Positions 4,556-23,663 of a stretch of DNA of 64,000 nt are shown here, one piece after another. The position numbers and the translations under genes are program-made. The DNA lies in NCBI GenBank assembly GCA_965205025.1, contig CBDBFU010000012.1:128001-192000 (forward strand), given 5' to 3'. This stretch comes from Candidatus Poribacteria bacterium (GTDB taxonomy: Bacteria > Poribacteria > WGA-4E > WGA-3G). The notes under the pieces were generated by a model. That model did not search any database. It was not told the DNA's origin and was given only the letters and a program-made list of their open reading frames with translations. How positions within the stretch are numbered: position 1 is the first letter of the stretch; each line of letters starts with the position of its first letter.

Positions 4556-5244
4556 TATCCAAAAACGAATAATTCCAGTCTACATATTCGTAGGAAAATA
4601 AACATGACTATCTATAAAAAAGATCCTAATTACAAAGTTTTATATACCTCAAAAAAGCATACATTTTTAACCGGCAGGAATGTAAAATCAGAAAGGACAA
4701 CAAAAACACAAAATCACACATTTTTGAATTTCTTATAAAGTTAATTCAAACTGGAGTAAAGCCAGTCTATGACAGGGATTACAGGGGTAATTTACGCCAA
4801 TTTCAATGTCACACTGTGTGACAAAAAGTGTAACTTTTTTCAGCTTTTCGATGCATAGAGTGAGACAACGACATCACGATCTACTGTCTGAGTATTTAGG
4901 ATTAAAAGACTATTTTTATACCTTATTTTCTGGCTATATATTAGGATTAAATATCTGTTTTATGACTTCTTTACCATGAGAAAATATTAGTTATTGAAGA
5001 ATATTCTCAAGACCAATATATGACATTATATACAAATACAAAGTACAACAAAAGATTGGGATAAATATAGGCATACAGATCTAATAGCAGCGTATTATTT
5101 AGTGAAAAACTCTACAAAACCCTATTAATGGTATCGGAGAACGTTCAGGATTTGACCAGATCTTCAATGAATGATAGAATGCAAATAAACAGTTTGAATT
5201 ACCAAGGATGTATTTCGTACTCATCAAAAATTAGGAGAAGACCA

Positions 5245-6243
5245 GTGAATACTAACGATAAACAATCCATAAAGAAAGCAGATATGCATGTCGGTGTTCA
5301 AGGTATTGGAACTTCAAAGAAAGAATTAGAATTTCTGGTGCGGCACGGGGTTACACATATGGATGCATCAGTCAGAGGAACTGAACCAGAAACACTGATA
5401 GAACACAAGGCTGAAGCAGAGGCAGCAGGTGTCAGTCTTGAGATGATTCACATTGGATTGCCAAGAAGCATTACACTCGCACAAGATCCACAGCGAGACA
5501 AGGACCTTGATGGAGTATGCACCACTATAGAAAATGCTGCAAAAGCAGGTTTACGAGGTTTAAACTATAATTTCTGTATCCTAAATCATCAACGAACCGA
5601 GAGTACAATAGGACGGGGTGGTTCCAGTTATAGTACATTTGACCTGTCAAAATACGATAACGATACTTTATCCGAGGCTGGCGAAGTAAGCCGTGCGGAA
5701 GCATTTGACAGGATAGGTTATTTTCTTGAAAGAGTAATACCTGTTGCTGAAGAAAACAATATCCAAATGGCATGTCATCCTAATGATCCACCTGCACCAG
5801 TATTACGCGGTGTGGAAAGATGGAATTACCCCATATTTGACGGATTAAAACGGTACAGTGAGATAGTGGATAGTCCTTATAACGGTTTTAACTTCTGCTG
5901 TGGTGTTGTTTCGGAAGGATTAGACGATCCCGGTACAGAATTGTATGAAATCATAGAGTATTTCGGTAAACGTAAAAGGATATTCAATATCCATTTTCGG
6001 AATATTAAGGGAGGATTACATAATTTCCAGGAGGTATGGCCAGATGAGGGAGATGTTGATATGTTTCGAGTTGCAAAGACCTTGCATGATGTAGAATATC
6101 CTTACATGTTGATGCCTGACCATGCTCCATCACATCCAGATGATAAATCACCTGAAGGTGTTTCTGGTCGTGTTCGTCAAGCATGGGCATACCAATTTGG
6201 ATATATAATTGCATTGATTCAAGCAGTTAATTCCATGAATTGA
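5245..6243 (+). CDS. Mannonate dehydratase (UxuA)-like sugar-acid dehydratase
   Basis: HPNDPP, IHFRN, FQEVWPDEGDVDM, MPDHAP motifs. GTG start chosen from AGGAG RBS at 5233. Confidence 0.85.
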   Translation: MNTNDKQSIKKADMHVGVQGIGTSKKELEFLVRHGVTHMDASVRGTEPETLIEHKAEAEAAGVSLEMIHIGLPRSITLAQDPQRDKDLDGVCTTIENAAKAGLRGLNYNFCILNHQRTESTIGRGGSSYSTFDLSKYDNDTLSEAGEVSRAEAFDRIGYFLERVIPVAEENNIQMACHPNDPPAPVLRGVERWNYPIFDGLKRYSEIVDSPYNGFNFCCGVVSEGLDDPGTELYEIIEYFGKRKRIFNIHFRNIKGGLHNFQEVWPDEGDVDMFRVAKTLHDVEYPYMLMPDHAPSHPDDKSPEGVSGRVRQAWAYQFGYIIALIQAVNSMN

Positions 6244-6371: not shown

Positions 6372-7652
6372 ATGGCAAAGTCACCAAACATTGTTTTTAT
6401 TCTTGCTGACGATCACGGTTATGGTGATATCTCAGCACATAATGGACCCTCAATTCAAACACCACATATTGATAGGATCGCAGAAGACGGTATACGACTT
6501 ACCCAATTCTATGCAAACTCCTCTGTCTGTTCACCAAGTCGTGCATCGCTCATGACGGGTCGCTATCCGGATAGAGTTGGTGTTCCAGGTGTTATACGCA
6601 CACATCCAGAAAACAATTGGGGATATTTTCGACAGGATGCTATCACACTCCCATCTATATTAAAAGAGAAAGATTACAAGACATCCCTAATTGGTAAGTG
6701 GCATCTCGGACTTGAAGATGAAAATCACCCATGTAAAAGAGGATTTGATTATTTTCACGGCTTTCTCGGTGATATGATGGATGACTATTACACGCATCTT
6801 CGCCATCAGAATAACTATATGCGTCGTGATTTTGAAACAATTGACCCAAGAGGACACGCTACCGATCTATTCTCGGATTGGAGTGTTGAGTTTATCCAAG
6901 AACAATCACAATCCACACAACCCTTCTTTCTATATCTTGCTTATAATGCACCGCACACCCCGATCCAACCACCGAATGATTGGGTTGATAGAGTGAAGGA
7001 TCGTGAACCAGATATTTCAGAACAACGGGCAAAATATATAGCACTTGTTGAGCACATGGATGCTGGTATTGGACGGGTTCTTGATTCACTTGAAAAAACC
7101 AATCAACTCTCCAATACTCTTGTCATATATACTTCTGACAACGGAGGTCAAATGGGGGTTGGGGCACATAACGGTCCACTTCGAGGTCAGAAGGGTGAAA
7201 TGTATGAAGGCGGTATACGTGTACCTACCTGTGTCATGTGGGAAGGACATATTCCTGAAGGTTATGTATCAAATCAAGTGGGTATGATAATGGATTTTTA
7301 TCCTACACTCTGTGAAATTACGGGTATACCTATAAACCATGAAATTGAGGGACAGTCAATTTTGAAAACATTGCAAGGCGAAAAACAGGATTTATCCGAA
7401 CGTCTACTCTACTGGATACGAAGAGAGGGAGGACAACAGTTCTTAGGAGATTGCCAACATGCTGTTAGACAGGGGGACATAAAACTGCTACATAACAGAC
7501 CTTTTGAATCCCTTGAACTTTATGACTTATCAAACGATCCGATGGAAGCTACCGATACTGCCAAAACGAATACTGATCTTTTTAAAGAGATGGGGAATCT
7601 TTTCCAGCAAGAGACACAGAAATCAGGGGGCATTCCTTGGCAAAAAGCATAA
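6372..7652 (+). CDS. Arylsulfatase-family (Cys-type) sulfatase
   Basis: PNIVFILADDHG, CSPSRASLMTGRY, GKWHLG, SDNGG. Confidence 0.93.
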   Translation: MAKSPNIVFILADDHGYGDISAHNGPSIQTPHIDRIAEDGIRLTQFYANSSVCSPSRASLMTGRYPDRVGVPGVIRTHPENNWGYFRQDAITLPSILKEKDYKTSLIGKWHLGLEDENHPCKRGFDYFHGFLGDMMDDYYTHLRHQNNYMRRDFETIDPRGHATDLFSDWSVEFIQEQSQSTQPFFLYLAYNAPHTPIQPPNDWVDRVKDREPDISEQRAKYIALVEHMDAGIGRVLDSLEKTNQLSNTLVIYTSDNGGQMGVGAHNGPLRGQKGEMYEGGIRVPTCVMWEGHIPEGYVSNQVGMIMDFYPTLCEITGIPINHEIEGQSILKTLQGEKQDLSERLLYWIRREGGQQFLGDCQHAVRQGDIKLLHNRPFESLELYDLSNDPMEATDTAKTNTDLFKEMGNLFQQETQKSGGIPWQKA

Positions 7653-7938: not shown

Positions 7939-8655
7939 TTGAGCAGTGAAATGAATAACGATCTTGATGCAAAATTAAAAAAAATCTTGGATAGTGAAAC
8001 AAACTTAGATACGGATAAACCTGATGACACAGTAGATACTGTTGGAGATACCCCAATGGAGGACATGGAATTACATCAGATAAATACACTTACTGAGATT
8101 AACCAGTCTTTGACGGTATTACTCGAATTATTTGAAAAACACATATCTGGAAATCAGAATCAAGTCCAGATGTTTGATAAAATGTATGCCGAAATGAAGG
8201 ACTATAAAGAGAGTTTTCTACTTGAAGTACTTCATAAACCGGTTATCCATAACTTAATTCAACTCTACGATAGTTTTGTATCACTTGAATCTCAGCTTAC
8301 TAACCTTATTGATGAGAATAATGATAACACACTATTAAATGAGTTGGGGCAATATAGTAGTAATTTACAGAATTTTCGTTTTGAACTTGAAGAAGTTTTA
8401 TACCGCATGGATGTAACACCCTATAAGGATTCACCAGATACATTGGATAGGCAGTTACACAAGACACGGAAAGTCATATCTACTGACGATCCAAATTTGG
8501 ATCAGAAAGTAGCAGAAGTGCATAAAATTGGATTCTATTGGCGTGAGAAAGTATTTCGTCCGGAAGATGTAACCATTTATCGTTATACGGCCTCCACAGA
8601 AAAATCTGAACATCGTAATACTAAACATTCTTCAGATCAGCAAAGGGGAGATTAA
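7939..8655 (+). CDS. GrpE-like nucleotide exchange factor
   Basis: Coiled-coil N-half. C-terminal LDRQLHK...VAEVHKIGFYWREKVFRPEDVTI resembles GrpE FDP..H...V.EV.Q.GY....RVLRPA.V; abuts the Hsp70 gene. Confidence 0.85.
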   Translation: MSSEMNNDLDAKLKKILDSETNLDTDKPDDTVDTVGDTPMEDMELHQINTLTEINQSLTVLLELFEKHISGNQNQVQMFDKMYAEMKDYKESFLLEVLHKPVIHNLIQLYDSFVSLESQLTNLIDENNDNTLLNELGQYSSNLQNFRFELEEVLYRMDVTPYKDSPDTLDRQLHKTRKVISTDDPNLDQKVAEVHKIGFYWREKVFRPEDVTIYRYTASTEKSEHRNTKHSSDQQRGD

Positions 8656-10251
8656 ATGGGTAAAGTTGTCGGAATAGATTTAGGTACGACATTTTCTGTG
8701 ATAGCACATATAAATGAGCATGGACAACCTGAAATTATCCCCAATTTGGAAAGTGACCGAATCACACCATCGGTCGTAATGTTTGAAGACAATCTTGTAA
8801 CTGTTGGGAAAATAGCTAAGCAGAATGCCAGAGCTGTTCCTGAACAGATTGTTGAGTTTATCAAAAGGGAGATGGGTAAATCAAGAACGAATTTCTTCCG
8901 TACATTCGATGAAAAAGACTATTCCCCTGAAGAACTATCTGCGCTCATTTTGACGAAACTGAAACAGGATGCAGAAATCTATCTGAATGAAGAGGTAACT
9001 GATGCTGTAATCACTGTACCCGCGTATTTTCACGACGCAGAAAGGGAAGCCACCCGAAATGCAGGTAAAATTGCAGGTTTTAATGTGCTTCAAGTCTTGA
9101 ACGAACCGACCGCAGCTGCACTCGCTTATGGAATCGATCAACTGGGTAATAACCAAAATGTATTTGTATTCGACCTTGGTGGTGGTACATTTGATGTGAC
9201 AATTATGCAGGTCTCAGAAGCTGAAATACAAATGTTAGCAACAAATGGTGACCATAGGTTAGGAGGTAAAGATTGGGACGACAAAATCATTACTTATGTT
9301 GCTGAGATGTTTGAGATAGAACATGGAGAGAATCCTCTGGATGATCTACATACATATCAAGACCTTCAACTGGATGCAATTGGAGCCAAAGAATCCTTAT
9401 CTCAACGACAAAGAGCATTAATTGTATGTGGATATAATGGGAAAACAACTCGTGTCGAATTAATGCGCGAGAAATTTGAAGAACTTACGGCAGATCTACT
9501 TGAGAGATGTCGAACTTTGTGTGAATTAGTATTATCAGAGGCAGAAATGGCTTGGACTGATATTGATAAGATTTTATTGGTTGGCGGGTCGACACGGATG
9601 CCTATGGTACAAGAAATGATACGGACAATTAGCGATAAAGAGATTAATCCACATGAAGTTAATCCTGATGAAGTCGTCGCATTAGGCGCGGCTATCCAAG
9701 GAACTCTACGTCAAATCACTGATGATACTGTTGAAACACCGGAAATGCCTGAAGCTGTTATTGAACGGTTTATTGGACCGGATGGTGTGCCAAAAGTCAC
9801 TGTAACTGACGGTGCTACACATAATCTCGGTCTTGTTGTCCTCAATTCACAACGCGATTATATTATCCATGTTATGATACCAAAAATGACTGCTGTACCG
9901 TGTGAAATTGCTGATCAATTCTTGACTGTAGATGAGAACCAACCAACTGTACTAATTGAGGTGGTGCAAGGACTTGAACAGGATCAGATTAAAAACCAAA
10001 TCCCATTTTTTGATGAATATAAGTTGGGAGAATGCACGCTTGAGTTACCTAACGGATTGCCACAAGGATCTCCAATTGAGGTAAATTATAAATATAATTT
10101 AGACCAAAATCTTGAGGTAACAGCAAAATCATTGACAGATGACGGTCCTACTGCAGTTTTTGATATCTTTTCAATAATTGATAGACCAACACTTAATGAA
10201 GAAGAAGTTTCCCAAGCACAAACAGATCTGCAAGAACTTACAGTTGAATAA
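8656..10251 (+). CDS. Atypical Hsp70/DnaK-family chaperone (no C-terminal lid)
   Basis: GIDLGTT, TVPAYF, EPTAAA, DLGGGTFD, LVGGSTRMP motifs; only 531 aa. Confidence 0.93.
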   Translation: MGKVVGIDLGTTFSVIAHINEHGQPEIIPNLESDRITPSVVMFEDNLVTVGKIAKQNARAVPEQIVEFIKREMGKSRTNFFRTFDEKDYSPEELSALILTKLKQDAEIYLNEEVTDAVITVPAYFHDAEREATRNAGKIAGFNVLQVLNEPTAAALAYGIDQLGNNQNVFVFDLGGGTFDVTIMQVSEAEIQMLATNGDHRLGGKDWDDKIITYVAEMFEIEHGENPLDDLHTYQDLQLDAIGAKESLSQRQRALIVCGYNGKTTRVELMREKFEELTADLLERCRTLCELVLSEAEMAWTDIDKILLVGGSTRMPMVQEMIRTISDKEINPHEVNPDEVVALGAAIQGTLRQITDDTVETPEMPEAVIERFIGPDGVPKVTVTDGATHNLGLVVLNSQRDYIIHVMIPKMTAVPCEIADQFLTVDENQPTVLIEVVQGLEQDQIKNQIPFFDEYKLGECTLELPNGLPQGSPIEVNYKYNLDQNLEVTAKSLTDDGPTAVFDIFSIIDRPTLNEEEVSQAQTDLQELTVE

Positions 10252-10327
10252 ATTCCTTCACCAAATTACATTTTCTTAGATAATATCATTAGTATATCTT
10301 ACCTTAGTTAACCACAGGAAATTACGA

Positions 10328-11704
10328 ATGTCTGATCGAGATGAATTTATAGCCTTTGTAACAGATTTTAAAGTTGTCTCACTTACTATTTCGGACGAAC
10401 AACGTAAAGGTCTTTTACGTAGAGCAGTACATCAACACGGTCTTACTGTAGAAGAAGCATACAGAATATTAGATAAATCGGGACTTGTAATTGGAGAACA
10501 ACAGGTAGATTTTTTTCAAGTATTAGGTATACCCTTTGAAGAGATTAAAACTAAAACCGAATCGGAGATTACAGGATGTGTTGAGTCAACCCACAAGAGA
10601 CTATATAGAGAATCCCTGAATTCGGGTGGTCGTCCACGGCCAGATGGTAGGTCAGAAGAACAGTGGCGAAGATTATTAAATCAAGCACGTGATGTCCTTA
10701 TTGATCCCATTAAGAGGCAAGGACATATTGATGAACTAAATACTTATGATGATGAAGAGTTTAATGAGGATATATCAATTAAGCCAACCACTTCTATAAG
10801 CAATTCATCATTTAATGTTGAGGAAAGGGTTATACCAGCACACAAAAAACTTGTATATTCTGTTGTATTTTCACCTGATGGCACATGTGTTGCCAGTGGG
10901 AGTGCTGACAAATCAATATGTATCTGGGATATTCAGGCTGAAAAGCAGAAACATATTCTTAACGGTCATCATGATACAGTAACATCTGTTAGGTATTCCC
11001 CAGACGGTAAAACCATAGCAAGCGGGAGTTTTGACGGAACAGTATGTTTATGGAATGCTAAATCTGGAGAGTTGAAAAAACGTTTAACAGAACAAAAAGA
11101 TAAAATTAGTTCCCTTGCTTATTCACCTGATGGAAAAACAATTGCAAGTGGGAGTTATAATGGAACTATTCAATTATACAATGCTGAGACAGGAGAACCT
11201 AAAATCCTCCTCAAAGGACATAAGAATTGGGTTAGTTCAGTTGTGTATTCACCTGATGGAAAAACAGTTGCATGTGCAAGTTATGATGGGAATGTATATT
11301 TATGGAATACTGAATCAGGCGTAAATATGCATGTCCTAACAGGTCATAAATTTAGTGTTATCGCAGTAACTTATTCACCTAATTCTGATACAATCATTAG
11401 TATTGATCTACAAGGAACAATTCTGGCATGGAATGCTATTTCTGGAAAACAAAAGAAACTCTCAACGGGGTTCATGTCCTGGGTTAGTTCAGTAGTTTAT
11501 TCCCCAGATGCAACGAATCTAACATGTGGTAGTTTTCATGGATCAATCACTTTATGGAATACAGATACATGGGAGGAAGTAAGAACTATTACAGGGCATA
11601 CCTCAACTGTAAAAGCACTATCCTACTCTCCAGATGGAAGGATTCTGGCAAGCTGCGGTGGAGACGGTAATGTACGAATTTGGAGTTCATCATTATACGA
11701 ATAA
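10328..11704 (+). CDS. Helical N-domain + divergent J-domain + WD40 beta-propeller
   Basis: DFFQVLGI...GGRPRPDGRSEEQWRRLLNQARDVLIDPIKR; about seven SPDG/WD repeats. Confidence 0.85.
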   Translation: MSDRDEFIAFVTDFKVVSLTISDEQRKGLLRRAVHQHGLTVEEAYRILDKSGLVIGEQQVDFFQVLGIPFEEIKTKTESEITGCVESTHKRLYRESLNSGGRPRPDGRSEEQWRRLLNQARDVLIDPIKRQGHIDELNTYDDEEFNEDISIKPTTSISNSSFNVEERVIPAHKKLVYSVVFSPDGTCVASGSADKSICIWDIQAEKQKHILNGHHDTVTSVRYSPDGKTIASGSFDGTVCLWNAKSGELKKRLTEQKDKISSLAYSPDGKTIASGSYNGTIQLYNAETGEPKILLKGHKNWVSSVVYSPDGKTVACASYDGNVYLWNTESGVNMHVLTGHKFSVIAVTYSPNSDTIISIDLQGTILAWNAISGKQKKLSTGFMSWVSSVVYSPDATNLTCGSFHGSITLWNTDTWEEVRTITGHTSTVKALSYSPDGRILASCGGDGNVRIWSSSLYE

Positions 11705-11788
11705 TACCTATTCAAGCTGCCGATCATTAATGACAGAATACTACAACTGAATTATTCTTGTTCATAGAATTTCTAATAGGTTTAATTA

Positions 11789-13030
11789 ATGTCCCAACGC
11801 GATGAATTCTTTGCATTTATTAATACTCTCAAAGATGCATCACCTACGATTACTGATGAACAACGAAAAGGCTTTCTCAGACTTGCAGTTGAAAAATATG
11901 GTTTAACTGTTGATGAAGCAACATCTATATTTAATGCATCGGGTATAATAATTGGGGAAATAGTTGATCTACTTGAAATCTTTGGATTAACTATCACAGA
12001 GATTAAGAGATATAATCAATCTGAAATTGTCGATCGCGTTGAGTCAATCCACAGTAAACTATATAGTGAATCTTTAAAGTCCGGTGGTCGTCCGCGTCCA
12101 GATGGTAGGTCAGAAGAACAGTGGCGAAGATTATTAAATCAAGCACGAGACACACTAACTGACTCAAAGAAACGGCACGAATATCTTACCACACTCCAAA
12201 TTAAAGAACCCTCCTTTGATATAGCATCAGGAAGCACAAGTCTTGAGGATATGTCACTTATTCATAAAGGTGAATTTGAAATGGGTAGCAATGATGACGA
12301 GGCTTTTGATGATGAACATCCGGTTCATACCGTTTTTCTTGACGAATTCTATATTGACCAATATCCTGTAACCAATGCACAATACAAGGCATTCCTTGAT
12401 GCAAGACCACAGTGGAGTAGACATGAAATTCCAAAAGAGTATTGTGATGTTGACTATCTAAAGCATTGGCGTTGGGATAGTTTTCCGAAAGGAGAAGCAG
12501 ATTATCCTGTTGTCAATGTAAGTTGGTATGCTGCTATGGCTTATGCTCAATGGAGAGGCAAACGTCTTCCAACTGAAGCTGAATGGGAAAAAGCTGCACG
12601 AGGTGATCTAATTGGCAATAAATATCCATACGGTAATTCAGTAGATCCCACTCAAGCGAATTATGACTGGAATGAGGGAAATACCACACCCGTTGGCAAA
12701 TATCCTTCAAATGGATATGAACTCTATGACATGTGCGGTAATGTTTGGGAATGGTGCCTTGATAAATATGAGAAATATTATTATAGAAACTCACCGACTC
12801 GTAACCCTATTGCTGGTGAAGATACTATTCACCAGTTGAATAGCAACTACTTAGAGATTGAATCTAACCGAGTATTACGGGGTGGTTCATGGCGTATACC
12901 TGCCTTATTAGTAAGAACAGCAAAACGTAATGCTGAATCACCATGGTTTTCACTGAATGTAATTGGATTTCGATGTGTATATCAGGTCTTACTTAAGGAT
13001 ATGTCTCCTTTACCTCCTTCCGTTATATGA
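11789..13030 (+). CDS. Divergent J-domain + FGE-sulfatase (SUMF1/CLec-fold) domain protein
   Basis: RPD J-like motif; GEFEMG, PVTN, RLPTEAEWEKAARG, DMCGNVWEW, RGGSW, GFRC. Confidence 0.88.
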   Translation: MSQRDEFFAFINTLKDASPTITDEQRKGFLRLAVEKYGLTVDEATSIFNASGIIIGEIVDLLEIFGLTITEIKRYNQSEIVDRVESIHSKLYSESLKSGGRPRPDGRSEEQWRRLLNQARDTLTDSKKRHEYLTTLQIKEPSFDIASGSTSLEDMSLIHKGEFEMGSNDDEAFDDEHPVHTVFLDEFYIDQYPVTNAQYKAFLDARPQWSRHEIPKEYCDVDYLKHWRWDSFPKGEADYPVVNVSWYAAMAYAQWRGKRLPTEAEWEKAARGDLIGNKYPYGNSVDPTQANYDWNEGNTTPVGKYPSNGYELYDMCGNVWEWCLDKYEKYYYRNSPTRNPIAGEDTIHQLNSNYLEIESNRVLRGGSWRIPALLVRTAKRNAESPWFSLNVIGFRCVYQVLLKDMSPLPPSVI

Positions 13031-13061
13031 ACTATCTTAACTTCTATATCAAAATTAGACT

Positions 13062-14447
13062 ATGCTAAAACGTAATGAGTATATAGACTTTATTAATCAA
13101 TTTAGAACTGTATCTCCAACTATCACAGATGAACAAAGGATTGGTCTTCTGCGACGAGGTGTTCAACAACATGGTCTATCAATTTCTGAGGCAGAGAAAA
13201 TAATTCTATCATCAGGATTAATTATCGGTGAACAGATAAATTATTTCGATATATTCGGTTTATCCATAGAAGATTTACAGAATAAAAACGAGGAGTTAAT
13301 TACAGCAGAAGTTGATACGATACACAGAAATCTATATAACGCTTCCTTAAAAGCAGGAGGTCGTATACGATCAGATGGCAGGACAGAAGAACAGTGGCGG
13401 ATCATATTAAATGAAGCACGCGATACTCTCAAGAATGTTGAAAAACGAAAATCTCATATTGAAATGCTACAATCCGATGTTCTACCTCCGATTGAAATCC
13501 TATTTGAAGATTCTCCTCTACAAGAAACTGACACAACACAAGAAACAATTCAAACACAACCAACCGAACAGTCAAGTGTGTTGCCATCTGTAAAAGTACT
13601 TCCTGAAGATGAATCTATACAAGAAACTGACACCCTTGAAGAATCTAATTTAACACAACCCGTAATAGAAGATGGTATGGCACTCATTCCTGCCGGAGAA
13701 TTTCAAATGGGGAGTGATGACATTGAGGCATACAATGACGAAAAACCTGTACATACTGTATACATAGATACATTCTTTATTGATCAATATCCTGTCACGA
13801 ATGTAGAATATCAAGAGTTTATTGATACCAATCCTGAATGGCGTAAACCCAAAAAGTGGTATGATAATACTGAAATTATTGCCGGTATTCACAAGAAATA
13901 TCATGACGGTGATTACCTAAAGACTTGGAAAAGAAACAATTTTCCAAAAAATGAAGATCATCATCCTGTAACTTGGGTGAGTTGGTATGCAGCCATGGCT
14001 TACGCACAGTGGAAAGGTAAAAGACTACCAACGGAAGCTGAATGGGAAAAAGCTGCACGAGGTGGTTTGACAGGACAGAAATATCCATGGGGAAATACCA
14101 TAAGCCTCAATCATCTAAATTACGATCTATATATCAGTAATACTACAGAAGTAGGTCAATACCCTGAAAATGGTTATGGTATTTATGATATGGCGGGGAA
14201 CGTATTTGAATGGTGCATAGATTTATGGGATGAAAACTTCTATACTAATTCTCCATACAATAATCCTGTCGCTGATGGATATTTAGCAGATATATTAGCT
14301 GATTTCACAAGCGCAATTACACCGAGAGTTGTGCGGGGTGGATCTTCTGTAAGTACTCCGAGAAACACACGTGTTTCATATCGACATAGAAATACTCCTA
14401 AACTGACATGTTTTAGTATTGGATTCCGTTGTGTAAGATCTAAATAA
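13062..14447 (+). CDS. Divergent J-domain + FGE-sulfatase domain protein
   Basis: RSD J-like motif, acidic linker, FGE-fold motifs. Confidence 0.88.
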   Translation: MLKRNEYIDFINQFRTVSPTITDEQRIGLLRRGVQQHGLSISEAEKIILSSGLIIGEQINYFDIFGLSIEDLQNKNEELITAEVDTIHRNLYNASLKAGGRIRSDGRTEEQWRIILNEARDTLKNVEKRKSHIEMLQSDVLPPIEILFEDSPLQETDTTQETIQTQPTEQSSVLPSVKVLPEDESIQETDTLEESNLTQPVIEDGMALIPAGEFQMGSDDIEAYNDEKPVHTVYIDTFFIDQYPVTNVEYQEFIDTNPEWRKPKKWYDNTEIIAGIHKKYHDGDYLKTWKRNNFPKNEDHHPVTWVSWYAAMAYAQWKGKRLPTEAEWEKAARGGLTGQKYPWGNTISLNHLNYDLYISNTTEVGQYPENGYGIYDMAGNVFEWCIDLWDENFYTNSPYNNPVADGYLADILADFTSAITPRVVRGGSSVSTPRNTRVSYRHRNTPKLTCFSIGFRCVRSK

Positions 14448-14500
14448 ACTACATTTTTATCAAATTTTTACTAATTTTTCATATATAAATTATTCTATCT

Positions 14501-15721
14501 ATGGCTGAAAGCAAAGAATTCATAGCATTTGTTAATAGATTAAAGACACTGTCACCGACCATAACCGAAGAGCAGCGTATTGGTCTTCTACGTCAAGGTA
14601 TGCAGGAATATAACCTCACCTCAGATGAAGCGGAAAATATTCTGAAAACATCAGGATTAATTGTTGGTGAACAAGATAATTATTTTGATGTCTTAGGAAT
14701 CTCAATTGAAGAATTTGAAGAACTTAGTGAAGCAGATATTATTGCGTATGTAGAATCCATCCACGACAAACTTTACAGAGCATCTTTGAATGCAGGAGGT
14801 CGGCCAAGGTCTGATGGTAGGACAGAAGAAGAGTGGCGGACACTACTAAATCAAGCACGAGATACATTAATAGATCCTGATATACGACGATTACACAATT
14901 CAACATTACAACAAACAGAAAATTCCTTAGATGATGGAATAACACATCTAAGTTCTGAAAATATGGTGTTAATCCCTGAAGGAGAATTTCAGATGGGATG
15001 TGATGATTATCAATCTGATAAGAGTGAGAAACCTGTCCATACTGTTTATGTTGATGCATTCTATATAGACTCTTTTCCGGTAACGAATCTACAGTACAAA
15101 TTATTTCTGGATGCGAACCCTCAGTGGAAATCTCCTAAAATAATTGATATTTATAGGATGCGAAAATATCGAGATACAGACTATTTGATGACTTGGGATA
15201 GGAACAAAGTTCCAACAGGAAAGGAAGAACATCCTGTAACTTGGGTGAGTTGGTATGCAGCTATGGCTTATGCTCAATGGTTAGGTAAAAGATTGCCAAC
15301 AGAAGCAGAATGGGAAAAAGCAGCACGTGGTGGCTTAGAAGAGAAAAAATATCCATGGGGTAATTCGATTGATGATTCCTATGCAAATTTTGGTATAAAC
15401 ATCGGTGAGACAACCCCAATTGGTAATTATCCTGCTAACAATTATGAAGTATACGATATGGTAGGGAATGTATCTGAATGGTGTTTAGATAAGTGGGATG
15501 AAAAATTCTATAGTTATTCACCACATATTAACCCAATTGCAGGTGGAAGTACTGAAAGGATTATAGAGACACATTCAAAATTAAGAGAGGAACGTGTAAT
15601 CAGAGGGGGTTCATGGCATACTGACCTTGAAGACCTACGAATATCCTACAGAACAGGATTAGCACCTTCAAAAACAGAAAGTTTTATAGGATTTCGTTGT
15701 GTGAAACCTATTAACCAGTAA
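14501..15721 (+). CDS. Divergent J-domain + FGE-sulfatase domain protein
   Basis: RSD J-like motif; FGE-fold motifs. Confidence 0.88.
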   Translation: MAESKEFIAFVNRLKTLSPTITEEQRIGLLRQGMQEYNLTSDEAENILKTSGLIVGEQDNYFDVLGISIEEFEELSEADIIAYVESIHDKLYRASLNAGGRPRSDGRTEEEWRTLLNQARDTLIDPDIRRLHNSTLQQTENSLDDGITHLSSENMVLIPEGEFQMGCDDYQSDKSEKPVHTVYVDAFYIDSFPVTNLQYKLFLDANPQWKSPKIIDIYRMRKYRDTDYLMTWDRNKVPTGKEEHPVTWVSWYAAMAYAQWLGKRLPTEAEWEKAARGGLEEKKYPWGNSIDDSYANFGINIGETTPIGNYPANNYEVYDMVGNVSEWCLDKWDEKFYSYSPHINPIAGGSTERIIETHSKLREERVIRGGSWHTDLEDLRISYRTGLAPSKTESFIGFRCVKPINQ

Positions 15722-15763
15722 ACCAATTATTTCTCTTGTTAAAGACCTAATTGAGGATCAAGA

Positions 15764-17053
15764 ATGCGTGAATATGAAGAATTTATCTCTGTTATCAATA
15801 CACTCAAAGTACTATCACCAATAATAACTGAAGCGCAACGTATTGGTCTTCTGCGACAAGGTGTGCAGGAATATGGTCTCACTACAGATGAAGCGGAAAA
15901 TATTCTGAAAACATCAGGATTAATTGTTGGTGAACAAGATAATTATTTTGATGTTTTAGGAATCTCAATTGAAGAACTGGAAAATCTCAGTGAAGCAGAT
16001 GTCGACGCACATGTTGAATCTGTCCACGACAAACTTTACCGAACATCTTTGAATGCAGGAGGTCGTCCGCGGTCTGATGGTAGAACAGAAGTAGAGTGGC
16101 GAAACCTTTTAAATCAAGCAAAAGATACAATAACAGATCCCTTAAAAAGAAGTGAATATATTTACATTCTACAACAGGATAGAATAAAGGATATACCTAC
16201 TGAAACATCACAGGAATTGGAATCATCTGAGGCAAACACAATACCTCATGCATTAAGTAGTACATTTATACAGGATGGTATTGAGGTGCCTGATGATATG
16301 GTATATATACCAGCAGGAGAATTCCAAATGGGGAGTGAACATGCAGATGCAGAGGAGGATGAACAACCTATTCACACAGTTTTTGTTAATGCATTTCTTA
16401 TGGATAAATATCCTGTGACAAATAGGAAATTTAGAGAATTTCTGAATACTAATCCTGAGTGGCGGAAACCTGATGATATAATTAATCATATAAGATGGAA
16501 TTATCATGACGGTTCATATTTGAAGGATTGGCAGATGAATATGTATCCACCTGGGAAAGGTGATCATCCAGTGACACAGGTGAGTTGGTATGCTGCGATG
16601 GCGTATGCAGAATCTGTAGGTAAGCGTTTACCGACTGAAGCGGAATGGGAAAGAGCAGCACGCGGTGGCTTGGATGGTAAACACTATTCATGGGGTAATG
16701 TTGAAGATTTTGCTAATGCAGATGAGTATTTAAATGCTGAAGATAATTTGCCAATCGGCCTTACACCTGCCAATAATTATGGACTTTATGACATGTGTGG
16801 CAATGTATGGGAATGGTGTCTTGATGCATATAATGAGGATTTCTATAATGATACACCACAGAATAACCCATTTTATGGACCTAACAGCATAGAATGGGTA
16901 ATAGAACATTTTAGACGTATAACAATCGAACGTGTATTACGCGGAGGTCCTTGGGGTTTTGAAACTATAGGTGCACGAGTATCACAACGACTCAAAAGTG
17001 CCCCAACCGATACTTTACCTACTTACAGTTTTCGTTGTATAAAATATATTTGA
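15764..17053 (+). CDS. Divergent J-domain + FGE-sulfatase domain protein
   Basis: RSD J-like motif; FGE-fold motifs (ends YSFRC). Confidence 0.88.
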   Translation: MREYEEFISVINTLKVLSPIITEAQRIGLLRQGVQEYGLTTDEAENILKTSGLIVGEQDNYFDVLGISIEELENLSEADVDAHVESVHDKLYRTSLNAGGRPRSDGRTEVEWRNLLNQAKDTITDPLKRSEYIYILQQDRIKDIPTETSQELESSEANTIPHALSSTFIQDGIEVPDDMVYIPAGEFQMGSEHADAEEDEQPIHTVFVNAFLMDKYPVTNRKFREFLNTNPEWRKPDDIINHIRWNYHDGSYLKDWQMNMYPPGKGDHPVTQVSWYAAMAYAESVGKRLPTEAEWERAARGGLDGKHYSWGNVEDFANADEYLNAEDNLPIGLTPANNYGLYDMCGNVWEWCLDAYNEDFYNDTPQNNPFYGPNSIEWVIEHFRRITIERVLRGGPWGFETIGARVSQRLKSAPTDTLPTYSFRCIKYI

Positions 17054-17117
17054 TAGGTATGGTCTTTTTGATAGAATAATTTCATAGAATATTGAAATAT
17101 AAATAGACTTACTAAAC

Positions 17118-18407
17118 ATGGCAAAACGTGAAGAGTTCATTCAGCTTATCAACACTTTTAAAACGGTGTCAGACACAATAACAGACAATCAAAGACGTGG
17201 TCTGTTGCAACAGGCTGTACAGATCTACGATCTCTCTATTGAAGAAGGTATAGAGATATTGGATTCATTAGGAATAGTTGTCGGCGATGAGATAAATTAT
17301 TTTGAGATATTAGGACTATCCCTTGAGGACATACAAGACAAGGATGACCACTCGGTTACTGATATTGTTAAAATAGCACATGATGACTTGTATAAAGTCT
17401 CCTTAACTGCTGGAGGACGGGTCAGATCAGATGGAAGGACTGAAGAACAGTGGCGAATACTACTGAACCAAGCGCGGAATATTCTGGGTGATAAAGAAAA
17501 AAGAAACGAATACATATCAACCCTTCTTCAAGAAGAATCTGAAGAATTTACAACTCCGAATACACCTACTATTCCGGGTACCGAACCTAATTCTATACAG
17601 ACGAGTGAAATTGTATCTGAACTGACCTCTCATATAATAATAGATCCTGACGATATTGAAATCCCGACTGAAATGGTATTGATCCCTTCAGGAGAATTTA
17701 TGATGGGATCTCATAGTGAAGAAATAAATGGTAGTGATTTATCATTACATAGTGTGTATGTAAATGGATACCTAATTGATAAATATCCTGTAACTAATTC
17801 TGAATTCCGTATTTTTCTCACAGAGAACGAACAATGGCAGAAAAACAACATACCCAATGAATTTCACAATGGTAAATACCTTAGTTCTTGGAACGGGAAT
17901 ATCTATCCAAGAAATAAAGACAATGATCCGGTTGTCGACGTAAGTTGGTATGCTGCCATGGCTTATGCTCAATGGATAGAGAAACGACTTCCAACAGATA
18001 TTGAATGGGAAAAAGCTGCACGTGGAGGGTTAACTGAAAAAACGTATCCCTGGGGTGATGATATTACTAACGACCTGGCGAATTACGGAATGATTGTTGG
18101 GAATACAACCCCTGTTGGCACCTATCCTCCAAATGAGTATGGTGCGTATGATATGGTTGGCAATGTGTGGGAATGGTGCCTTAATCATTATGAACATATT
18201 GAAGCATTTAGTAAACCAAGTATATCTGTTGAACAGATTGGTGATATCTTAGATTCCTACTTAGAAGTCGAAAGCAATCGTGTGTTACGTGGAGGGTCTT
18301 GGGCAAGTAGTGAACGAGCTCTTAATGTTGCATATAGAGGTAGTGCTGCCCCTGATTATACATATTACAGCTACGGGTTTCGATGTGTTAAGGATATTCA
18401 TGGGTAA
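17118..18407 (+). CDS. Divergent J-domain + FGE-sulfatase domain protein
   Basis: NYFEILGLS...RSD...LNQARNILGDKEKRNEY; FGE-fold motifs. Confidence 0.88.
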   Translation: MAKREEFIQLINTFKTVSDTITDNQRRGLLQQAVQIYDLSIEEGIEILDSLGIVVGDEINYFEILGLSLEDIQDKDDHSVTDIVKIAHDDLYKVSLTAGGRVRSDGRTEEQWRILLNQARNILGDKEKRNEYISTLLQEESEEFTTPNTPTIPGTEPNSIQTSEIVSELTSHIIIDPDDIEIPTEMVLIPSGEFMMGSHSEEINGSDLSLHSVYVNGYLIDKYPVTNSEFRIFLTENEQWQKNNIPNEFHNGKYLSSWNGNIYPRNKDNDPVVDVSWYAAMAYAQWIEKRLPTDIEWEKAARGGLTEKTYPWGDDITNDLANYGMIVGNTTPVGTYPPNEYGAYDMVGNVWEWCLNHYEHIEAFSKPSISVEQIGDILDSYLEVESNRVLRGGSWASSERALNVAYRGSAAPDYTYYSYGFRCVKDIHG

Positions 18408-18467
18408 AATATCTTCAACTCTAATGTACATCTAATTTTCAGAGTTCATCTTTTTGGAACTGTATTA

Positions 18468-19845
18468 ATGGCAAAACGAGAAGAATTTATAGATGCAATC
18501 AATTTGTTTAGATCTGCCTCACAGTCCATTTCGGTAGAACAACGGATAGGACTTTTACAACAAGCTGTACAAGAGTATGGACTATCAATAGAAGAAGCAG
18601 AGGGGATAATCAAAGAAACAGGATTAAATGTCGGTGGTGCTATTAATTACTTTAGAGTCTTAGGTTTGTCAAATCACGAATTTGAAAATCTGAACGAAAC
18701 CACTATTACATCAATTATAGATGACGCACATAAACAACATTATACAGAATCATTAAGGGCAGGTGGCCTTCCTCGTCCTGATGGGAGAACCCAAGAACAG
18801 TGGAGAAATATCTTAAATCACGCACGCGATACTTTAATTGATCCACATAAACGCGAAGAATATCTATCACAATTATTGAGTGAAGAAGATTCATCTGATA
18901 GTCTCATTAATGATGTGTCCAACAATAATACCACTGATACGGAAATCTATAATCAGAATCATAACCAGACAGTCTCAATTGATAATAAAGCACAATTAAA
19001 TACATGCACCTTCGATTGTAAAAAATAAAAAAGTATTTACCCATCATGAATCACCTGCAAATATGGTACAAATCCCTGCTGGTGACTTCAGAATGGGTAG
19101 TAATAATGAAAAAGTTAGTAATAGAGAAAAACCTGCACATGTCGTGTATATTGACGAGTTTTTTATAGACACTAATTTAGTTACCAATGCAGAATATAAA
19201 GAGTTTGTAGATGCCAATCCACAATGGACAAAACCAACAAAATGGTTTCACTTAGAGAAAAAGATGAAATCTTATATACCTGAGAAATACCATGATGGTG
19301 ATTATCTAAAACATTGGAATGAGAATACATATCCTGATGAGAAAGCAGAACATCCTGTGACATGGGTGAGCTGGTATGCCGCAATGGCGTATGCTGAATG
19401 GGTGGCTAAACGTCTCCCAACAGAGGCAGAATGGGAAAAAGCTGCACGCGGTGGAATAACTGGACAGAATTATCCTTGGGGAGAATCAATTGATTATACT
19501 AAGGCTAATTATAATAGCTATATTGGTGAAACAACTTCTGTCGGTCAGTATCCTGCAAACGGATATGGAATTCATGATATGATAGGAAATGTCTGGGAAT
19601 GGTGTCTTGACGAGTATCAGGAAAATTACTATGCAAGTTCAGAACGCAAGAACCCAATTTGTGGTCCAAATACGGTTGAATCAATAGAATATAGTGATAT
19701 AGATAATAGACATGCACGGGTAATGCGAGGAGGTTCTTGGCTGGATGCCTCTCAATTCGTCCGTTCTGCATCCCGTTACAGGAACACACCTACACGTACA
19801 CTCGCAAGAATTGGGTTTCGTTGTGTCAAGTCTGCAACATCATAA
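18468..19845 (+). pseudogene. Divergent J-domain + FGE-sulfatase gene split by one frameshift (possibly a sequencing error)
   Basis: 18468-19028 carries the J-like part and 19063-19845 the FGE part. The second frame is open back to ~19003 (HAPSIVKNKKVFTHHESPANM). Confidence 0.8.
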
Positions 19846-19907
19846 TCCCGATAACTTCTTCATTGCAAATTTAGTTACACCTACATGTTTAATTACTGGT
19901 GGTACGT

Positions 19908-21299
19908 ATGTCAAATCGTGATGAGTTTATTGCTGTCGTAAATACACTCAAAACACTCTCTAATACAATTACAGATGAACAGAATAGAAGTCTATTACAG
20001 CAGGCAGTCCACGATCATGGTCTCTCAGTAGAAGACGCCTTGGAGATAATCGATTCATTAGGGATAATTGTTGGGGAAAAGATAAACTACTTAGAGATCT
20101 TAGGGTTTTCTATTGAAGATTTAAGTTCACAAGATGAATCTAACATTACTAAAATGCTTGAAATTGCCCATAAAAAATACTACTCTGAATCATTACAGTC
20201 GGGTGGGTTACCACGACAGGATGGGAGAACTCAAGAACAGTGGCGTACAATTCTAAATCAAGCCTATGATACATTGAAAGATCCAATAAAACGCAAGGAA
20301 CATATTGAAACCGTACAAACTGAGTCATCTCATGAGGAGAACACATCAACTATAGTAACCGAAATATCTGAACCTAAAGATACCTCATTACAAGTTGCAG
20401 TTCCAGAAGAAATGGTCTTAATTCCATCTGGGGATTTTCAGATGGGTAATAGTAATGAAAATGCAAATATACGCGAAACACCGGTACATATTGTCAATAC
20501 TGATGCATTTTATATTGACAAATATCCAATAACAAATGAACAATATAAAGCGTTTATAGATGCAAACCCATTATGGCGGAAACCATCTGAAGGATTGTGG
20601 TTATATCTTCAAAAATGGTATGAAAAAGGGAACGTTCGATTTCGATATAACTACATATATGATAAATATCATGATGGAGTGTATCTGAGACATTGGAGAC
20701 ATAATAGGTTCCCTCTTGAAACAGCTAATCATCCTGTTACCCATGTAAGTTGGTATGCTGCAATGGCGTATGCACAATGGGTTGGCAAACGTCTGCCAAC
20801 AGAAGCAGAATGGGAGAAAGCTGCACGGGGAGGGATAAATGGTCAGAAATATCCTTGGGGTGATTTAATGAATTCCAACATGGCAAATTGTAATGAGGAT
20901 GCAGATAAAACCACACCTATAGGAAAGTATCCTGCAAATAATTTCGGTGTTTTTGATATGGTTGGAAATATATGGGAGTGGTGCATTGATGAATATGTAA
21001 TGGATTTTTATACATCCTCTACATCTCTGAATCCTATCGCAGGCGTGGACTCAAAGGAGGACTTGGACAATTTCATTCTCAATTTTAGAGACGTAGATAG
21101 TGATCGTGTTTTGCGAGGTGGTACATCCTTTATTTCATCTGAACCTATCCATACTGCCGCACGTTGGGGTGGAACACCTATTCTTACTGAACATATTGCT
21201 TCCTATTCAACTAAGTATTTAGATACATTTTCAAGGCCAATCGCAGCAAACATTGGCTTCAGATGTGTATGGGATACAAACGTAAAAACGAATTCTTAA
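19908..21299 (+). CDS. Divergent J-domain + FGE-sulfatase domain protein
   Basis: RQD motif, LNQAYDTLKDPIKR; FGE-fold with insertions. Start MSNRDEF chosen by paralog alignment. Confidence 0.88.
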   Translation: MSNRDEFIAVVNTLKTLSNTITDEQNRSLLQQAVHDHGLSVEDALEIIDSLGIIVGEKINYLEILGFSIEDLSSQDESNITKMLEIAHKKYYSESLQSGGLPRQDGRTQEQWRTILNQAYDTLKDPIKRKEHIETVQTESSHEENTSTIVTEISEPKDTSLQVAVPEEMVLIPSGDFQMGNSNENANIRETPVHIVNTDAFYIDKYPITNEQYKAFIDANPLWRKPSEGLWLYLQKWYEKGNVRFRYNYIYDKYHDGVYLRHWRHNRFPLETANHPVTHVSWYAAMAYAQWVGKRLPTEAEWEKAARGGINGQKYPWGDLMNSNMANCNEDADKTTPIGKYPANNFGVFDMVGNIWEWCIDEYVMDFYTSSTSLNPIAGVDSKEDLDNFILNFRDVDSDRVLRGGTSFISSEPIHTAARWGGTPILTEHIASYSTKYLDTFSRPIAANIGFRCVWDTNVKTNS

Positions 21300-21326: not shown

Positions 21327-23663
21327 ATGAATTCATATCCAAAAGAGAGATTGATTATGAAAAACAAAAATAGTTACATATTATGGTATAACAAACCAGC
21401 ACAAGAGTGGACAGATGCCCTACCCGTTGGGAATGGACGACTTGGGGCAATGGTGTTTGGGGGAGTAGAACAGGAACGGATCCAACTTAATGAAGAGAGT
21501 CTTTGGGAAGGATGTTTTCAGGATACAAATAATCCTAAGGCACTGCAAGCACTTCCAATTGTCCAACAATTGTTGTTTGAAGACAAAAATGATGAAGCCA
21601 CAACACTTGCTGGTGAAACGATGCTGGGTGTTCCACATCGGATAAAATCTTATCAGTCTTTAGGCGATATTATTATTGATTTTACTAATCATAGTGAAAT
21701 TACAGAATATCACCGGGAACTGGATTTAGATACAGGTATAGCAAAGACAACCTATCAAGTCGGTAATGATAATATCAATAGAGAAGTCTTCGCAACTGCT
21801 GTCGATGATATCATCGTTATCCGTATAGAATCCGATTCAGCCAATGCTGTTAGTTTTGATGTTACAATGACACGAGAACAGGATGCCTCGGTTGCATGCA
21901 TATCTGACAAAATCCTTAGACTTGATGGAGAATGTAGTGATGGTGGTCTACGTTTTTCTGCATATCTGAAGGCAAATGTTGATGATGGAAAAATAGAATC
22001 GAATGAAGATAAAATTTCTATTCGTTCTGCAAGTAGTGTAACATTGCTACTGTCTGGTGCAACGAGTTATATTAATCAGAAAGATGCAACGGGTAATCCA
22101 CATGAATTGTGTGAAGGTCATCTGTCATCAGTAGAAAACAAATCTTATGACAAATTACGTTCTGACCACATACAGGAACATCAATCTCTATTTCAAAGAG
22201 TAGACATAAACCTCGGTTCAAGCGATGCGGATAATCTACCTACAGATGAACGTCTAACAAAGGTAAAGGAAGGTGACTCTGACCCAGGGCTTGTTTCACT
22301 ATATTTTCAGTTTGGACGTTATCTTTTAATGGGGAGTTCAAGACCCGGATGTCTCCCAGCCAACCTGCAGGGGGTTTGGAACCATCACATGAAAGCCCCA
22401 TGGAACAGCGATTACCACACCAATATTAATCTACAAATGAATTACTGGGTTCCAGAAGTATGCAATCTCGCTGAATGTCATAAGCCGTTATTTGATTATA
22501 TGGATACACTCGTTGAACCTGGAAGTGAGACAGCAAAACGCCATTATGGTGCAGGGGGTTGGGTAGTTCATCACTTATCTGATATATGGGGATTTACAAC
22601 ACCAGCGGATGGTATTTGGGGGATATCACCTGTAGGTGCTGCATGGTTGAGCGAACATGTATGGGAACATTACCTGTTCGGTGGTGATGAGAAATTTCTT
22701 AGAGAACAAGGTTATCCACTCATGAAAGGTGCCGCACGTTTTATGCTTGATTTTCTAATTGAAGCACCAGAAGGTACACCTTTCGCTGGAAAACTTGTAA
22801 CGAATCCATCCCATTCACCTGAAAACAGTTTTCAAAAAGCTGATGGTACACGTTCACTATTCACTTATGCCGCAACAATTGACCTTGAGATTATACATGA
22901 ACTCTTCACAAATTGCATAGACTGTCTTGATGTACTCGGTATTGACGCGGATTTCCGAGAAGAATTAGTTTCATCTCTGGATCGGTTGGCACCACTACAG
23001 ATTAGTGAAAAAACAGGTAGACTGCAGGAGTGGATATATGACTATGATGAACCGGAACCAGGACATAGACATATGTCACATATGTATGGTCTACATCCAA
23101 GTTGTCAAATAACACTACGTGGCACTCCTGAGTTGGCAGAGGCAGCACGAAAATCTTTGGAATATCGATTGCAACATGGTGGCGGACAAACAGGATGGAG
23201 TCGGGCATGGTTGGTAAATTTCTTAGCACGACTTGAAGACGCAGAAGAAGCGTATAACCATTTACATGCACTCCTTGCAAGGTGTACCTTAACAAACCTG
23301 TTTGATACCCATCCACCATTCCAGATTGACGGAAACTTTGGGGGAACAGCAGGAATTGCTGAGATGCTTATACAAAGTCATGACGGAGAGATTAACCTAC
23401 TCCCCGCACTGCCAAAAGAATGGAATACCGGTTATGTTAAAGGGTTGCGTGCACGCAGTGGGTTTGAAGTGGATATGGAATGGGAAAATGGTACTCTTAC
23501 TAAGTCGATAATTTCTTCTCAACTTGGTAGGGAATGTACTGTTAGAACAACGGAAACTGTTTCGGTGTCGTGTGATAATGAAAAAATTGAATCAATTCAA
23601 TCTAATTCAGTGACAACATTCAGTACAGAGATTGGAAAAACCTACATAATATCTACTACATAG
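21327..23663 (+). CDS. Glycoside hydrolase family 95 (alpha-1,2-L-fucosidase-like)
   Basis: [50 protein letters not shown]. Confidence 0.93.

Follow-up and report, generated by a model that had tools for sequence, protein, structure and literature searches.

A lidless Hsp70 encoded with a GrpE-like factor and an array of J-like adaptors in Candidatus Poribacteria, a candidate second Hsp70 machine

We analyzed a stretch of 64,000 nucleotides from a Candidatus Poribacteria bacterium genome (GenBank assembly GCA_965205025.1, contig CBDBFU010000012.1, positions 128,001 to 192,000 of the forward strand), hereafter called the window, and focused on an Hsp70 gene that lies in it beside a GrpE-like gene and a series of J-like adaptor genes. 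Eleven tightly packed open reading frames (ORFs), with intergenic gaps of 0-84 bp, occupy positions 7939-21299 of the plus strand. The GrpE-like gene comes first, the Hsp70 gene second, and nine further ORFs follow, on one strand throughout (Table 1). The TAA stop codon of the GrpE-like gene directly abuts the ATG of the Hsp70 gene, and the purine-rich AAAGGGGAGA is located just upstream of this ATG. The GrpE-like protein is a member of the GrpE family by its match to Pfam GrpE (PF01025; 2.2e-08, 34.4 bits against a cut-off of 25.8, profile positions 12-163 of 165). An N-terminal region of ~140 residues is common to eight of the nine downstream ORFs, in which it precedes either a WD40 propeller or a domain resembling the formylglycine-generating enzyme (FGE)-sulfatase family; we call their products adaptors. 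The ninth ORF (19063-19845) carries only the FGE-like half of a copy that is split in two. Close database homologues of the window Hsp70 bear Candidatus Poribacteria names.

The window Hsp70 belongs to the Hsp70 superfamily, matching PF00012 at 406.1 bits (cut-off 20.6) over profile positions 1-514 of 599, and the fold and catalytic residues of its nucleotide-binding domain (NBD) are those of an Hsp70. The NBD (residues 1 to ~352) is followed by an extended linker (353-385), the β-domain of the substrate-binding domain (SBD-β, ~386-500) and a C-terminal helix (515-526). The initial annotation of this DNA, made from its letters, had proposed that the protein carries Gln in place of DnaK R167, that an insertion of ~20 residues precedes a linker reading KVTVTD for DVLLLD, that the chain ends about one helix after the β-domain and that the ATP-binding motifs are intact. 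All of this is borne out by alignment with E. coli DnaK (NC_000913) and with the genome's own canonical DnaK. Gln146 aligns with R167 of both DnaKs, and a DnaK chain from the PDB agrees (NVLRIVNEPTAAA in DnaK, NVLQVLNEPTAAA here). In place of DnaK D388-VLLL-D393, the window protein has K380-VTVT-D385 (nt 9793-9810); ahead of it lie residues 355-377 (TDDTVETPEMPEAVIERFIGPDG, nt 9718-9786), opposite which both DnaKs have a gap of ~22 columns. The chain stops ~25 residues past the β-domain, without lid helices B-E and the tail. The catalytic and allosteric residues are kept (in DnaK numbering D8, K70, E171, D194, T199, D201, P143, R151, Q378, D393, P419 and D481), as are the equivalents of the β-domain pocket residues F426, V436 and I438. 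In addition, the alignment reveals changes that had not been listed before, namely D477K, D479N, E206Q, E217Q and D388K, and a 21-column deletion corresponding to DnaK residues ~76-101.

The AlphaFold2 (AF2) model of the Hsp70 (pLDDT 92, pTM 0.91) places the lone helix 515-526 after the last strand and, within the linker, a short helix at 366-372 (pLDDT 71-86) and a β-strand at 382-386. The model is nearest to the domain-docked, ATP-type structures of DnaK and BiP (TMq 0.85-0.88, root-mean-square deviation (rmsd) 2.3-3.1 Å), compared with 0.54-0.61 for undocked states. Because the catalytic and allosteric residues and the pocket are kept and a docked, ATP-like conformation is predicted, the Hsp70 is probably an active, allosterically coupled ATPase. 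In the DnaK/J-domain structure as summarized by Mayer (2021, PMC8215388), H33 of the J-domain bonds the backbone of L391, P34 touches P419, D35 bonds R167 and Q378, and K48 pairs with D477. Set against our alignment, this contact list implies that the R167 and D477 contacts are changed in the window Hsp70 and that the Q378 and P419 contacts are kept. R167 of DnaK is also reported to form intramolecular ion pairs with D393 and D481 (Tomiczek 2020, PMC7289447).

The window Hsp70 falls outside the DnaK and HscA families by profile score, reaching 410.3 against 822.55 and 425.4 against 648 for the DnaK equivalogs (TIGR02350 and NF001413) and 328.4 against 708.55 for HscA (TIGR01991). The DnaK hallmarks (R167, the VLLL linker, and the lid and tail) are replaced by Q146, KVTVTD and the single helix after the β-domain, and no isc genes lie near the window Hsp70. 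In PADLOC-DB 2.0, no clear match to an anti-phage defence system emerged: the Hsp70 gives only a weak match to PDC-M61B (9e-4), and the WD40 and HEAT domains give matches of the repeat type. The genome encodes a housekeeping set elsewhere: a canonical DnaK (891 bits, full profile), a canonical GrpE (149.5 bits), which together with the operon copy accounts for its two GrpE matches, and two PF00226 proteins, both with the HPD motif and a basic helix II (...KKAYRKLA.KYHPD). With a canonical DnaK present, the lidless Hsp70 might act as an Hsp110-like co-chaperone or exchange factor of the housekeeping DnaK through NBD-NBD contact, a role proposed in general terms for 'NBD-containing DnaK paralogues' (FEBS J 2026, PMC13580251). 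We regard this as extremely unlikely: GrpE-like and J-like genes of its own stand in the same operon, the β-domain is kept with its conserved pocket, and the Hsp70 is modelled as binding the J-module, as described below.

The N-terminal module of the adaptors is read as a divergent J-fold without HPD, because profile matches, an AF2 model, structural alignments and a sub-threshold Pfam match of one relative all point that way. In all eight window paralogues, an invariant R-x-D-G-[RK] lies between two helices, and HPD is found in none of them; R-x-D-G also occurs in 120 of the 120 database homologues listed for the module. Arg takes the position of the HPD His, and the Asp is retained. The middle residue of the loop varies: window copies have P, S or Q, to which the homologues add A, T, V and L. 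Helix II is non-basic, unlike that of the genome's two canonical J-proteins. When the module's profile is compared with PDB sequences, seven of the eight matches up to E 10 are J-proteins (HscB at 0.0046, Jac1 at 0.02). The AF2 model of the module (pLDDT 86.5) has the four-helix fold, its residues ~57-140 aligning with J-domains at Z up to 10.6 and an rmsd of 1.7 Å over 70 residues, and J-domain proteins make up nearly all of the 50 structural matches listed. Foldseek assigns J-domains probabilities of 0.9-1.0, but at E values of at least 0.18. One relative, at a locus labelled L045, matches Pfam DnaJ at 1.2e-4 and 22.5 bits, under the cut-off of 27.8.

The adaptor heads vary in relatives, where FGE-like domains (one to five copies), WD40, ankyrin, HEAT, TPR, cyclophilin or no known domain follow the J-module. 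Some relatives' adaptors have a membrane segment after the J-module. At locus L048, two ORFs (L048:4142-5230 and L048:6445-11283) encode a J-module lacking both HPD and RxD, which a hydrophobic segment separates from either a cyclophilin domain or five FGE-like domains; this arrangement suggests membrane-anchored adaptors with their heads outside the cytoplasm. Ahead of the J-fold, adaptor residues 1-55 (e.g. window 14501-14665) form a conserved three-helix module, which has weak structural matches only (RecX and an integrase N-terminal domain, Z about 5) and is missing from some relatives. A search across 185,579 species, one genome each, confirmed the motif [SPQ]DGR[TS][EQ][EV][QE]W at 37 loci, nearly all of them in Poribacteria and the rest in metagenome-assembled genome records named 'uncultured bacterium'. 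Since these loci were selected by the RxD pattern itself, they were kept out of the correlations given below.

We predicted the complex of the Hsp70 and the J-module with ATP and Mg in ESMFold2, using our own unpaired alignments. The complex scores 0.79, compared with 0.00 for the best of three controls, and three runs share at least 93% of their contacts, with a partner pLDDT of at least 80. This supports binding of the J-module to the Hsp70 at the level of a model. In calibration, 58 of 80 solved complexes attained the 0.79 mark, as did 2 of 110 mismatched pairs; these counts apply only roughly here because our own alignments were used and ligands were included. A solved DnaK/J-domain complex exists (5NRO), so part of the 0.79 pass may reflect likeness to it; the predicted interface differs from it, however. 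The confident contacts involve adaptor residues 93, 96-104 and 106, in the LNAGGRPRSDG loop, and Hsp70 residues 63, 66-68 and 80-83 in lobe IB and 205-234 in a lobe IIB helix.

This predicted position opens another reading, in which the J-module acts away from the canonical site. Its R-P-R-S-D-G loop would clamp lobes IB and IIB where the nucleotide cleft opens, a region that exchange factors and Hip use, and would hold or gate the nucleotide state, competing there with the GrpE-like factor. Loss of classical J-activation would then account for what has changed at R167, in the linker and at D477. The score against its controls, the agreement between runs, and the loss of canonical contacts on both sides are consistent with such a clamp, and the contacting Hsp70 residues (EVEF, FFRT, GGKDWDD...) are strongly conserved in the subfamily. 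However, these residues are also conserved where the adaptors lack the loop, and therefore yield no covariation signal either way. The placement comes from a single model by a single program, with unpaired alignments and a calibration made without ligands, and it leaves residues that are not named uncertain without excluding them. Taken together, we consider the clamp rather unlikely.

The substitutions in the window Hsp70 are conserved, not sporadic or due to chance. Among its 120 closest database homologues (69-95% identity, all 492-547 aa long), position 146 is Gln in 118 and His in two, and 90 read [PA]KVTVT. The window-type Hsp70 is present in 55 of 151 sampled Poribacteria genomes, including 31 of 37 in genus g1 and 21 of 57 in genus g2. 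To place these traits more widely, we surveyed the best 150 clusters (50% identity) from a HMMER scan of 1.84 billion representatives, which returned 49,078 proteins at E ≤ 0.001. The residue at position 167 is mixed among these 150 clusters (R 33, D 23, Q 17, K 16, A 14, G 12, other residues in the rest). Lidless proteins, with at most 60 residues after the β-domain, make up 94 of the 150 (only 15 of the 94 have R at 167), and four hydrophobic residues at 389-392 occur in only three. Judged from these sequences, loss of R167, a long polar linker and absence of the lid typify a very large class of bacterial DnaK derivatives; given these counts, the three traits are class-wide rather than specific to an RxD partner. 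In a FastTree tree of 148 rows, whose deep branches are weakly supported, DnaK, HscA and HscC fall together in a starred 13-row clade and the window protein lies outside it, in a starred clade of four rows that also holds P0055 (Q), P0122 (Q) and P0121 (R). Within clades, the residue at 167 is mostly fixed, as in a starred 22-row clade of 21 D and one Q.

We then compared gene neighbourhoods, fetching 20 loci with long flanks. One of these (L052) encodes another Hsp70 class with Ala at 167; the other 19 and the window give 20 subfamily loci, 19 with Gln and one, L053, with Lys in an odd fused ORF. This ORF (L053:4331-6313) runs from an Hsp70 NBD into the three-helix module of the adaptors, and may be a fusion or an artefact of assembly or frameshift. 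Adaptors with R-x-D-G are present at 15 of the 18 Gln loci with a visible adaptor. At the remaining three (L042, L045 and L048), the Gln Hsp70 is kept and the adaptor loop is shortened and lacks RxD. A metagenome scan by C-terminal alignment added four loci, all with Gln and with RxD in all three that have a visible adaptor, and hence no contrast. A separate metagenome scan with P0121, the closest R167 relative (65% identical), gave no confirmed locus. A tblastn search of plasmids with the window Hsp70 and representatives of the D167 and K167 clades returned almost only canonical dnaK, with two readable non-canonical operons. On a Nostoc plasmid, a Q167 Hsp70 with a normal hydrophobic linker and lid lies beside GrpE and a small J-protein with FPA in place of HPD. 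On a Rhodococcus plasmid, a lidless R167 Hsp70 lies beside GrpE and a J-TPR protein reading HPNPD, in which His-Pro is kept. Both operons point in the direction of the initial annotation, but they are only two. A search of five Poribacteria genomes yielded too few further Hsp70 classes for covariation. Additional Hsp70-NBD proteins of 800-900 aa are present in other Poribacteria genomes (G070:C1:3000981-3004722, G092:C368 and G140:C35), two in tandem.

At five related loci from Poribacteria and metagenomes (L049:2500-4587, L097:3617-5698, L050, L051 and L053), the operon opens with an Hsp70 of ~695 aa that has a C-terminal vWA domain and keeps R167. A GrpE-like gene, the lidless Q-type Hsp70 and the J-like adaptors follow this Hsp70-vWA fusion. 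A bolder reading, unlikely in our view, is that the R-x-D-G-R loop bridges lobes IB and IIB at the nucleotide cleft, as the complex model would have it, and does not read R167, the linker and SBD-β, a mode of action not described for any J-domain. The Hsp70 would then have given up its classical J-activation surface, and the array, with FGE-like, WD40, ankyrin and HEAT heads, would serve as receptors that gate a private Hsp70 by clamping its nucleotide state. Because related loci add the Hsp70-vWA fusion, this might be a sensing or conflict system.

A further alternative is that the Hsp70 traits were inherited with the class. Loss of R167, loss of the lid and a long polar linker would have arisen early among DnaK derivatives, Gln146 would be kept for intramolecular reasons, for example by tuning the coupling between NBD and SBD without a lid, and RxD would have evolved independently. 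The mixture of residues at 167 and the spread of lidless chains and polar linkers over the best 150 clusters suit this idea, as do the position of the window protein apart from the DnaK/HscA/HscC clade, the fixation of residue 167 within clades and the persistence of Gln146 where RxD has been lost. The reported ion-pair partners of R167, D393 and D481 (Tomiczek 2020, PMC7289447), are both kept here as well. However, clade-specific fixation at a J-contact residue is equally expected from tuning to a specific partner, and further J-contact residues are altered (D477K, E206Q and E217Q). The plasmid operons also run counter to it, since Q167 accompanies an HPD-less J-protein in Nostoc and R167 accompanies one that keeps His-Pro in Rhodococcus. 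We regard inheritance with the class as a real, if lesser, possibility.

On balance, we favor the reading that the product of this gene is the ATPase core of a second, self-contained Hsp70 machine in Poribacteria, working with the GrpE-like factor and the adaptor array. In the proposed machine, the N-terminal J-fold module of an adaptor, which has an R-x-D-G-R loop in place of HPD, would bind the Hsp70, and the C-terminal non-enzymatic domain (in the window an FGE-like lectin fold or WD40, in relatives ankyrin, HEAT, TPR or cyclophilin) would select the target. The lidless Hsp70 would then bind and release clients quickly, as is expected when the lid is absent. Several observations weigh against this reading. 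No window paralogue matches Pfam DnaJ (PF00226) at E ≤ 0.01, and the Z scores of the J-fold are within the range that helical bundles can attain by chance. The modelled interface lies off the canonical J site, and its named residues do not include Gln146, the linker or the β-domain. Across the pooled Gln loci, RxD is present in 18 of 21 and absent from three, so either the loop is not indispensable or these three copies are degenerate. Position 167 varies throughout the class, and its change may predate the operon system and be unrelated to it. In the loci with the Hsp70-vWA fusion, an R167 protein stands beside the same adaptors, and either Hsp70 may be their partner there.

These data also bear on a further proposal of the initial annotation, that the Hsp70 interface co-evolved with the RxD J-domains and is insulated from the housekeeping DnaK and DnaJ. 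Its premises stand: the J-docking surface is altered (R167Q, D477K, E206Q, E217Q and the polar linker), and neither HPD nor a basic helix II is found in the J-fold modules encoded next to it. The matching of the two sides is not established, because the Asp is kept, Gln occurs without RxD, the Hsp70 traits are class-wide and the model docks the loop elsewhere, on lobes IB and IIB. In particular, D35, the residue that contacts R167, is retained and the His is what changed; therefore, Gln and RxD are not a compensating pair. Insulation fares better. With a diverged docking surface, HPD-less modules and a separate canonical DnaK with two HPD J-proteins in the same genome, a private Hsp70/J pair is plausible from the sequences, and cross-talk with the housekeeping DnaK, DnaJ and GrpE would be unlikely since the docking surface and the J-module have both diverged.

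The FGE-like heads were considered as true formylglycine-generating enzymes and rejected as such, because the catalytic Cys pair is absent. Aligned with the first-ranked formylglycine-generating enzyme in the PDB, the adaptor domain has gaps at the Cys pair, and the catalytic Cys pattern (GGS..C....C) does not occur in any of the genome's 22 FGE-domain matches. The J-FGE adaptors might still serve sulfatase maturation by retaining Cys-type sulfatases, still unfolded, on the Hsp70 during conversion of the CxPxR cysteine to formylglycine. A Cys-type sulfatase gene (CSPSR motif, no obvious signal peptide; 6372-7652, plus strand) directly adjoins the operon upstream, and the genome has 46 sulfatase-domain matches and no FGE-domain match with the canonical Cys pair. 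However, every FGE-like domain of the array lacks both catalytic cysteines, the genome encodes a radical-SAM sulfatase maturase elsewhere (524 bits, cut-off 349), and adaptors of the same family bear WD40, ankyrin, HEAT, TPR or cyclophilin heads. Sulfatase maturation is accordingly very unlikely as the task of the array. The flanks of the operon are carbohydrate-use genes: upstream, beside the sulfatase gene, a UxuA-like dehydratase gene (5128-6243, plus strand), and 27 bp downstream, a gene for a GH95 fucosidase-type hydrolase (21327-23663, plus strand). Within the array, the two halves of paralogue 7 are 34 bp apart and could represent either a disrupted copy or two genes that are naturally separate.

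Table 1. Features of the operon (positions in the window)
Feature	Position	Strand	Details and basis
GrpE-like nucleotide exchange factor	7939..8655	+	238 aa, TTG start; Pfam GrpE
Lidless Hsp70	8656..10251	+	531 aa; PF00012
Codon CAA, Gln146 (equivalent of DnaK R167)	9091..9093	+	alignment
Linker region: insert 355-377, then K380-VTVT-D385	9718..9810	+	alignment, AF2
Last 17 Hsp70 residues, sole helix after the β-domain (equivalent to lid helix A)	10198..10248	+	alignment, AF2
Adaptor paralogue 1: N-terminal three-helix module, predicted J-fold (RPD), WD40 propeller	10328..11704	+	
Adaptor paralogues 2-6: N-terminal module and predicted J-fold (RPD or RSD), FGE-sulfatase-like domain without the catalytic Cys pair	11789-13030, 13062-14447, 14501-15721, 15764-17053, 17118-18407	+	Pfam, alignment
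Adaptor paralogue 7, split: 18468-19028 (N-terminal module and predicted J-fold) / 19063-19845 (FGE-like)	18468..19845	+	
Adaptor paralogue 8: predicted J-fold (RQD), FGE-like domain with insertion (Pfam profile 3-195/255)	19899..21299	+	

Our literature search found no published description of this operon, or of a lidless Hsp70 with HPD-less J partners, although supplements may list such architectures. In the pertinent section of Kaur et al. (2020, PMC7159879), the combination of HSP70, GrpE and DnaJ is described only in GAP1-N2 GTPase systems, and sequences without HPD were excluded from the J-domain data set as Malinverni et al. (2023, PMC10410713) describe it. HPD and R167 are treated as near-universal parts of the switch for ATP hydrolysis, and the operon pair naturally does without both. 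The pair is conserved and apparently functional in the same cell as a canonical set, which makes it possible to test how far the J-signal depends on HPD and R167 and how orthogonal Hsp70/J pairs stay apart. The operon also gives one branch of the unstudied bacterial DnaK derivatives a context, that of an exchange factor and an adaptor array. Its hosts are uncultured sponge symbionts, and the parts are small enough for expression and assay.

Compared with the DnaK-DnaJ-GrpE triad, the operon likewise combines an Hsp70 ATPase, a GrpE-type exchange factor and J-fold partners, and the two Hsp70s have catalytic and allosteric residues and a predicted ATP-type docked conformation in common. Unlike the triad, it has an Hsp70 with R167Q, D477K, a polar, extended linker and neither lid helices B-E nor tail, and its partners lack HPD and a basic helix II and come as eight to nine tandem paralogues. 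E. coli HscC with DjlB and DjlC is alike in being a specialized, non-essential Hsp70 with dedicated neighbouring J-proteins (Mayer 2021, PMC8215388), and the deletion corresponding to DnaK 76-101 is also found in HscC by alignment. The window protein is not an HscC, however: HscC retains R167 and a shortened lid (84 residues after the β-domain, compared with ~25-44 here), and it is placed elsewhere in our tree, where it is a single sequence on a long branch whose exact place is unsure. HscC is also reported to be independent of GrpE (Mayer 2021, PMC8215388). Of the same general class are the 'DnaK derivates' of Myxococcus and Anaeromyxobacter, which are said to have a DnaK-like NBD and a shortened or deleted lid, always to occur beside a canonical DnaK in the same genome and to be unexplored in function (FEBS J 2026, PMC13580251); the nearest clusters of the window Hsp70 are of this lid-short or lidless kind. 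That review's account of them includes neither an operon with a GrpE-like factor and HPD-less J-fold adaptors nor residue 167. In eukaryotes, Ssz1/HSPA14 with zuotin and HSPA12, mentioned in the same review (PMC13580251), are likewise lidless or atypical Hsp70s in Hsp70 systems. All of these eukaryotic proteins are related to the operon only at the depth of the superfamily. Pam16-type J-like domains are HPD-less J-folds that still work inside Hsp70 systems. These atypical eukaryotic Hsp70s and J-like proteins regulate a canonical Hsp70/J pair, whereas in the operon both partners are atypical and encoded together.

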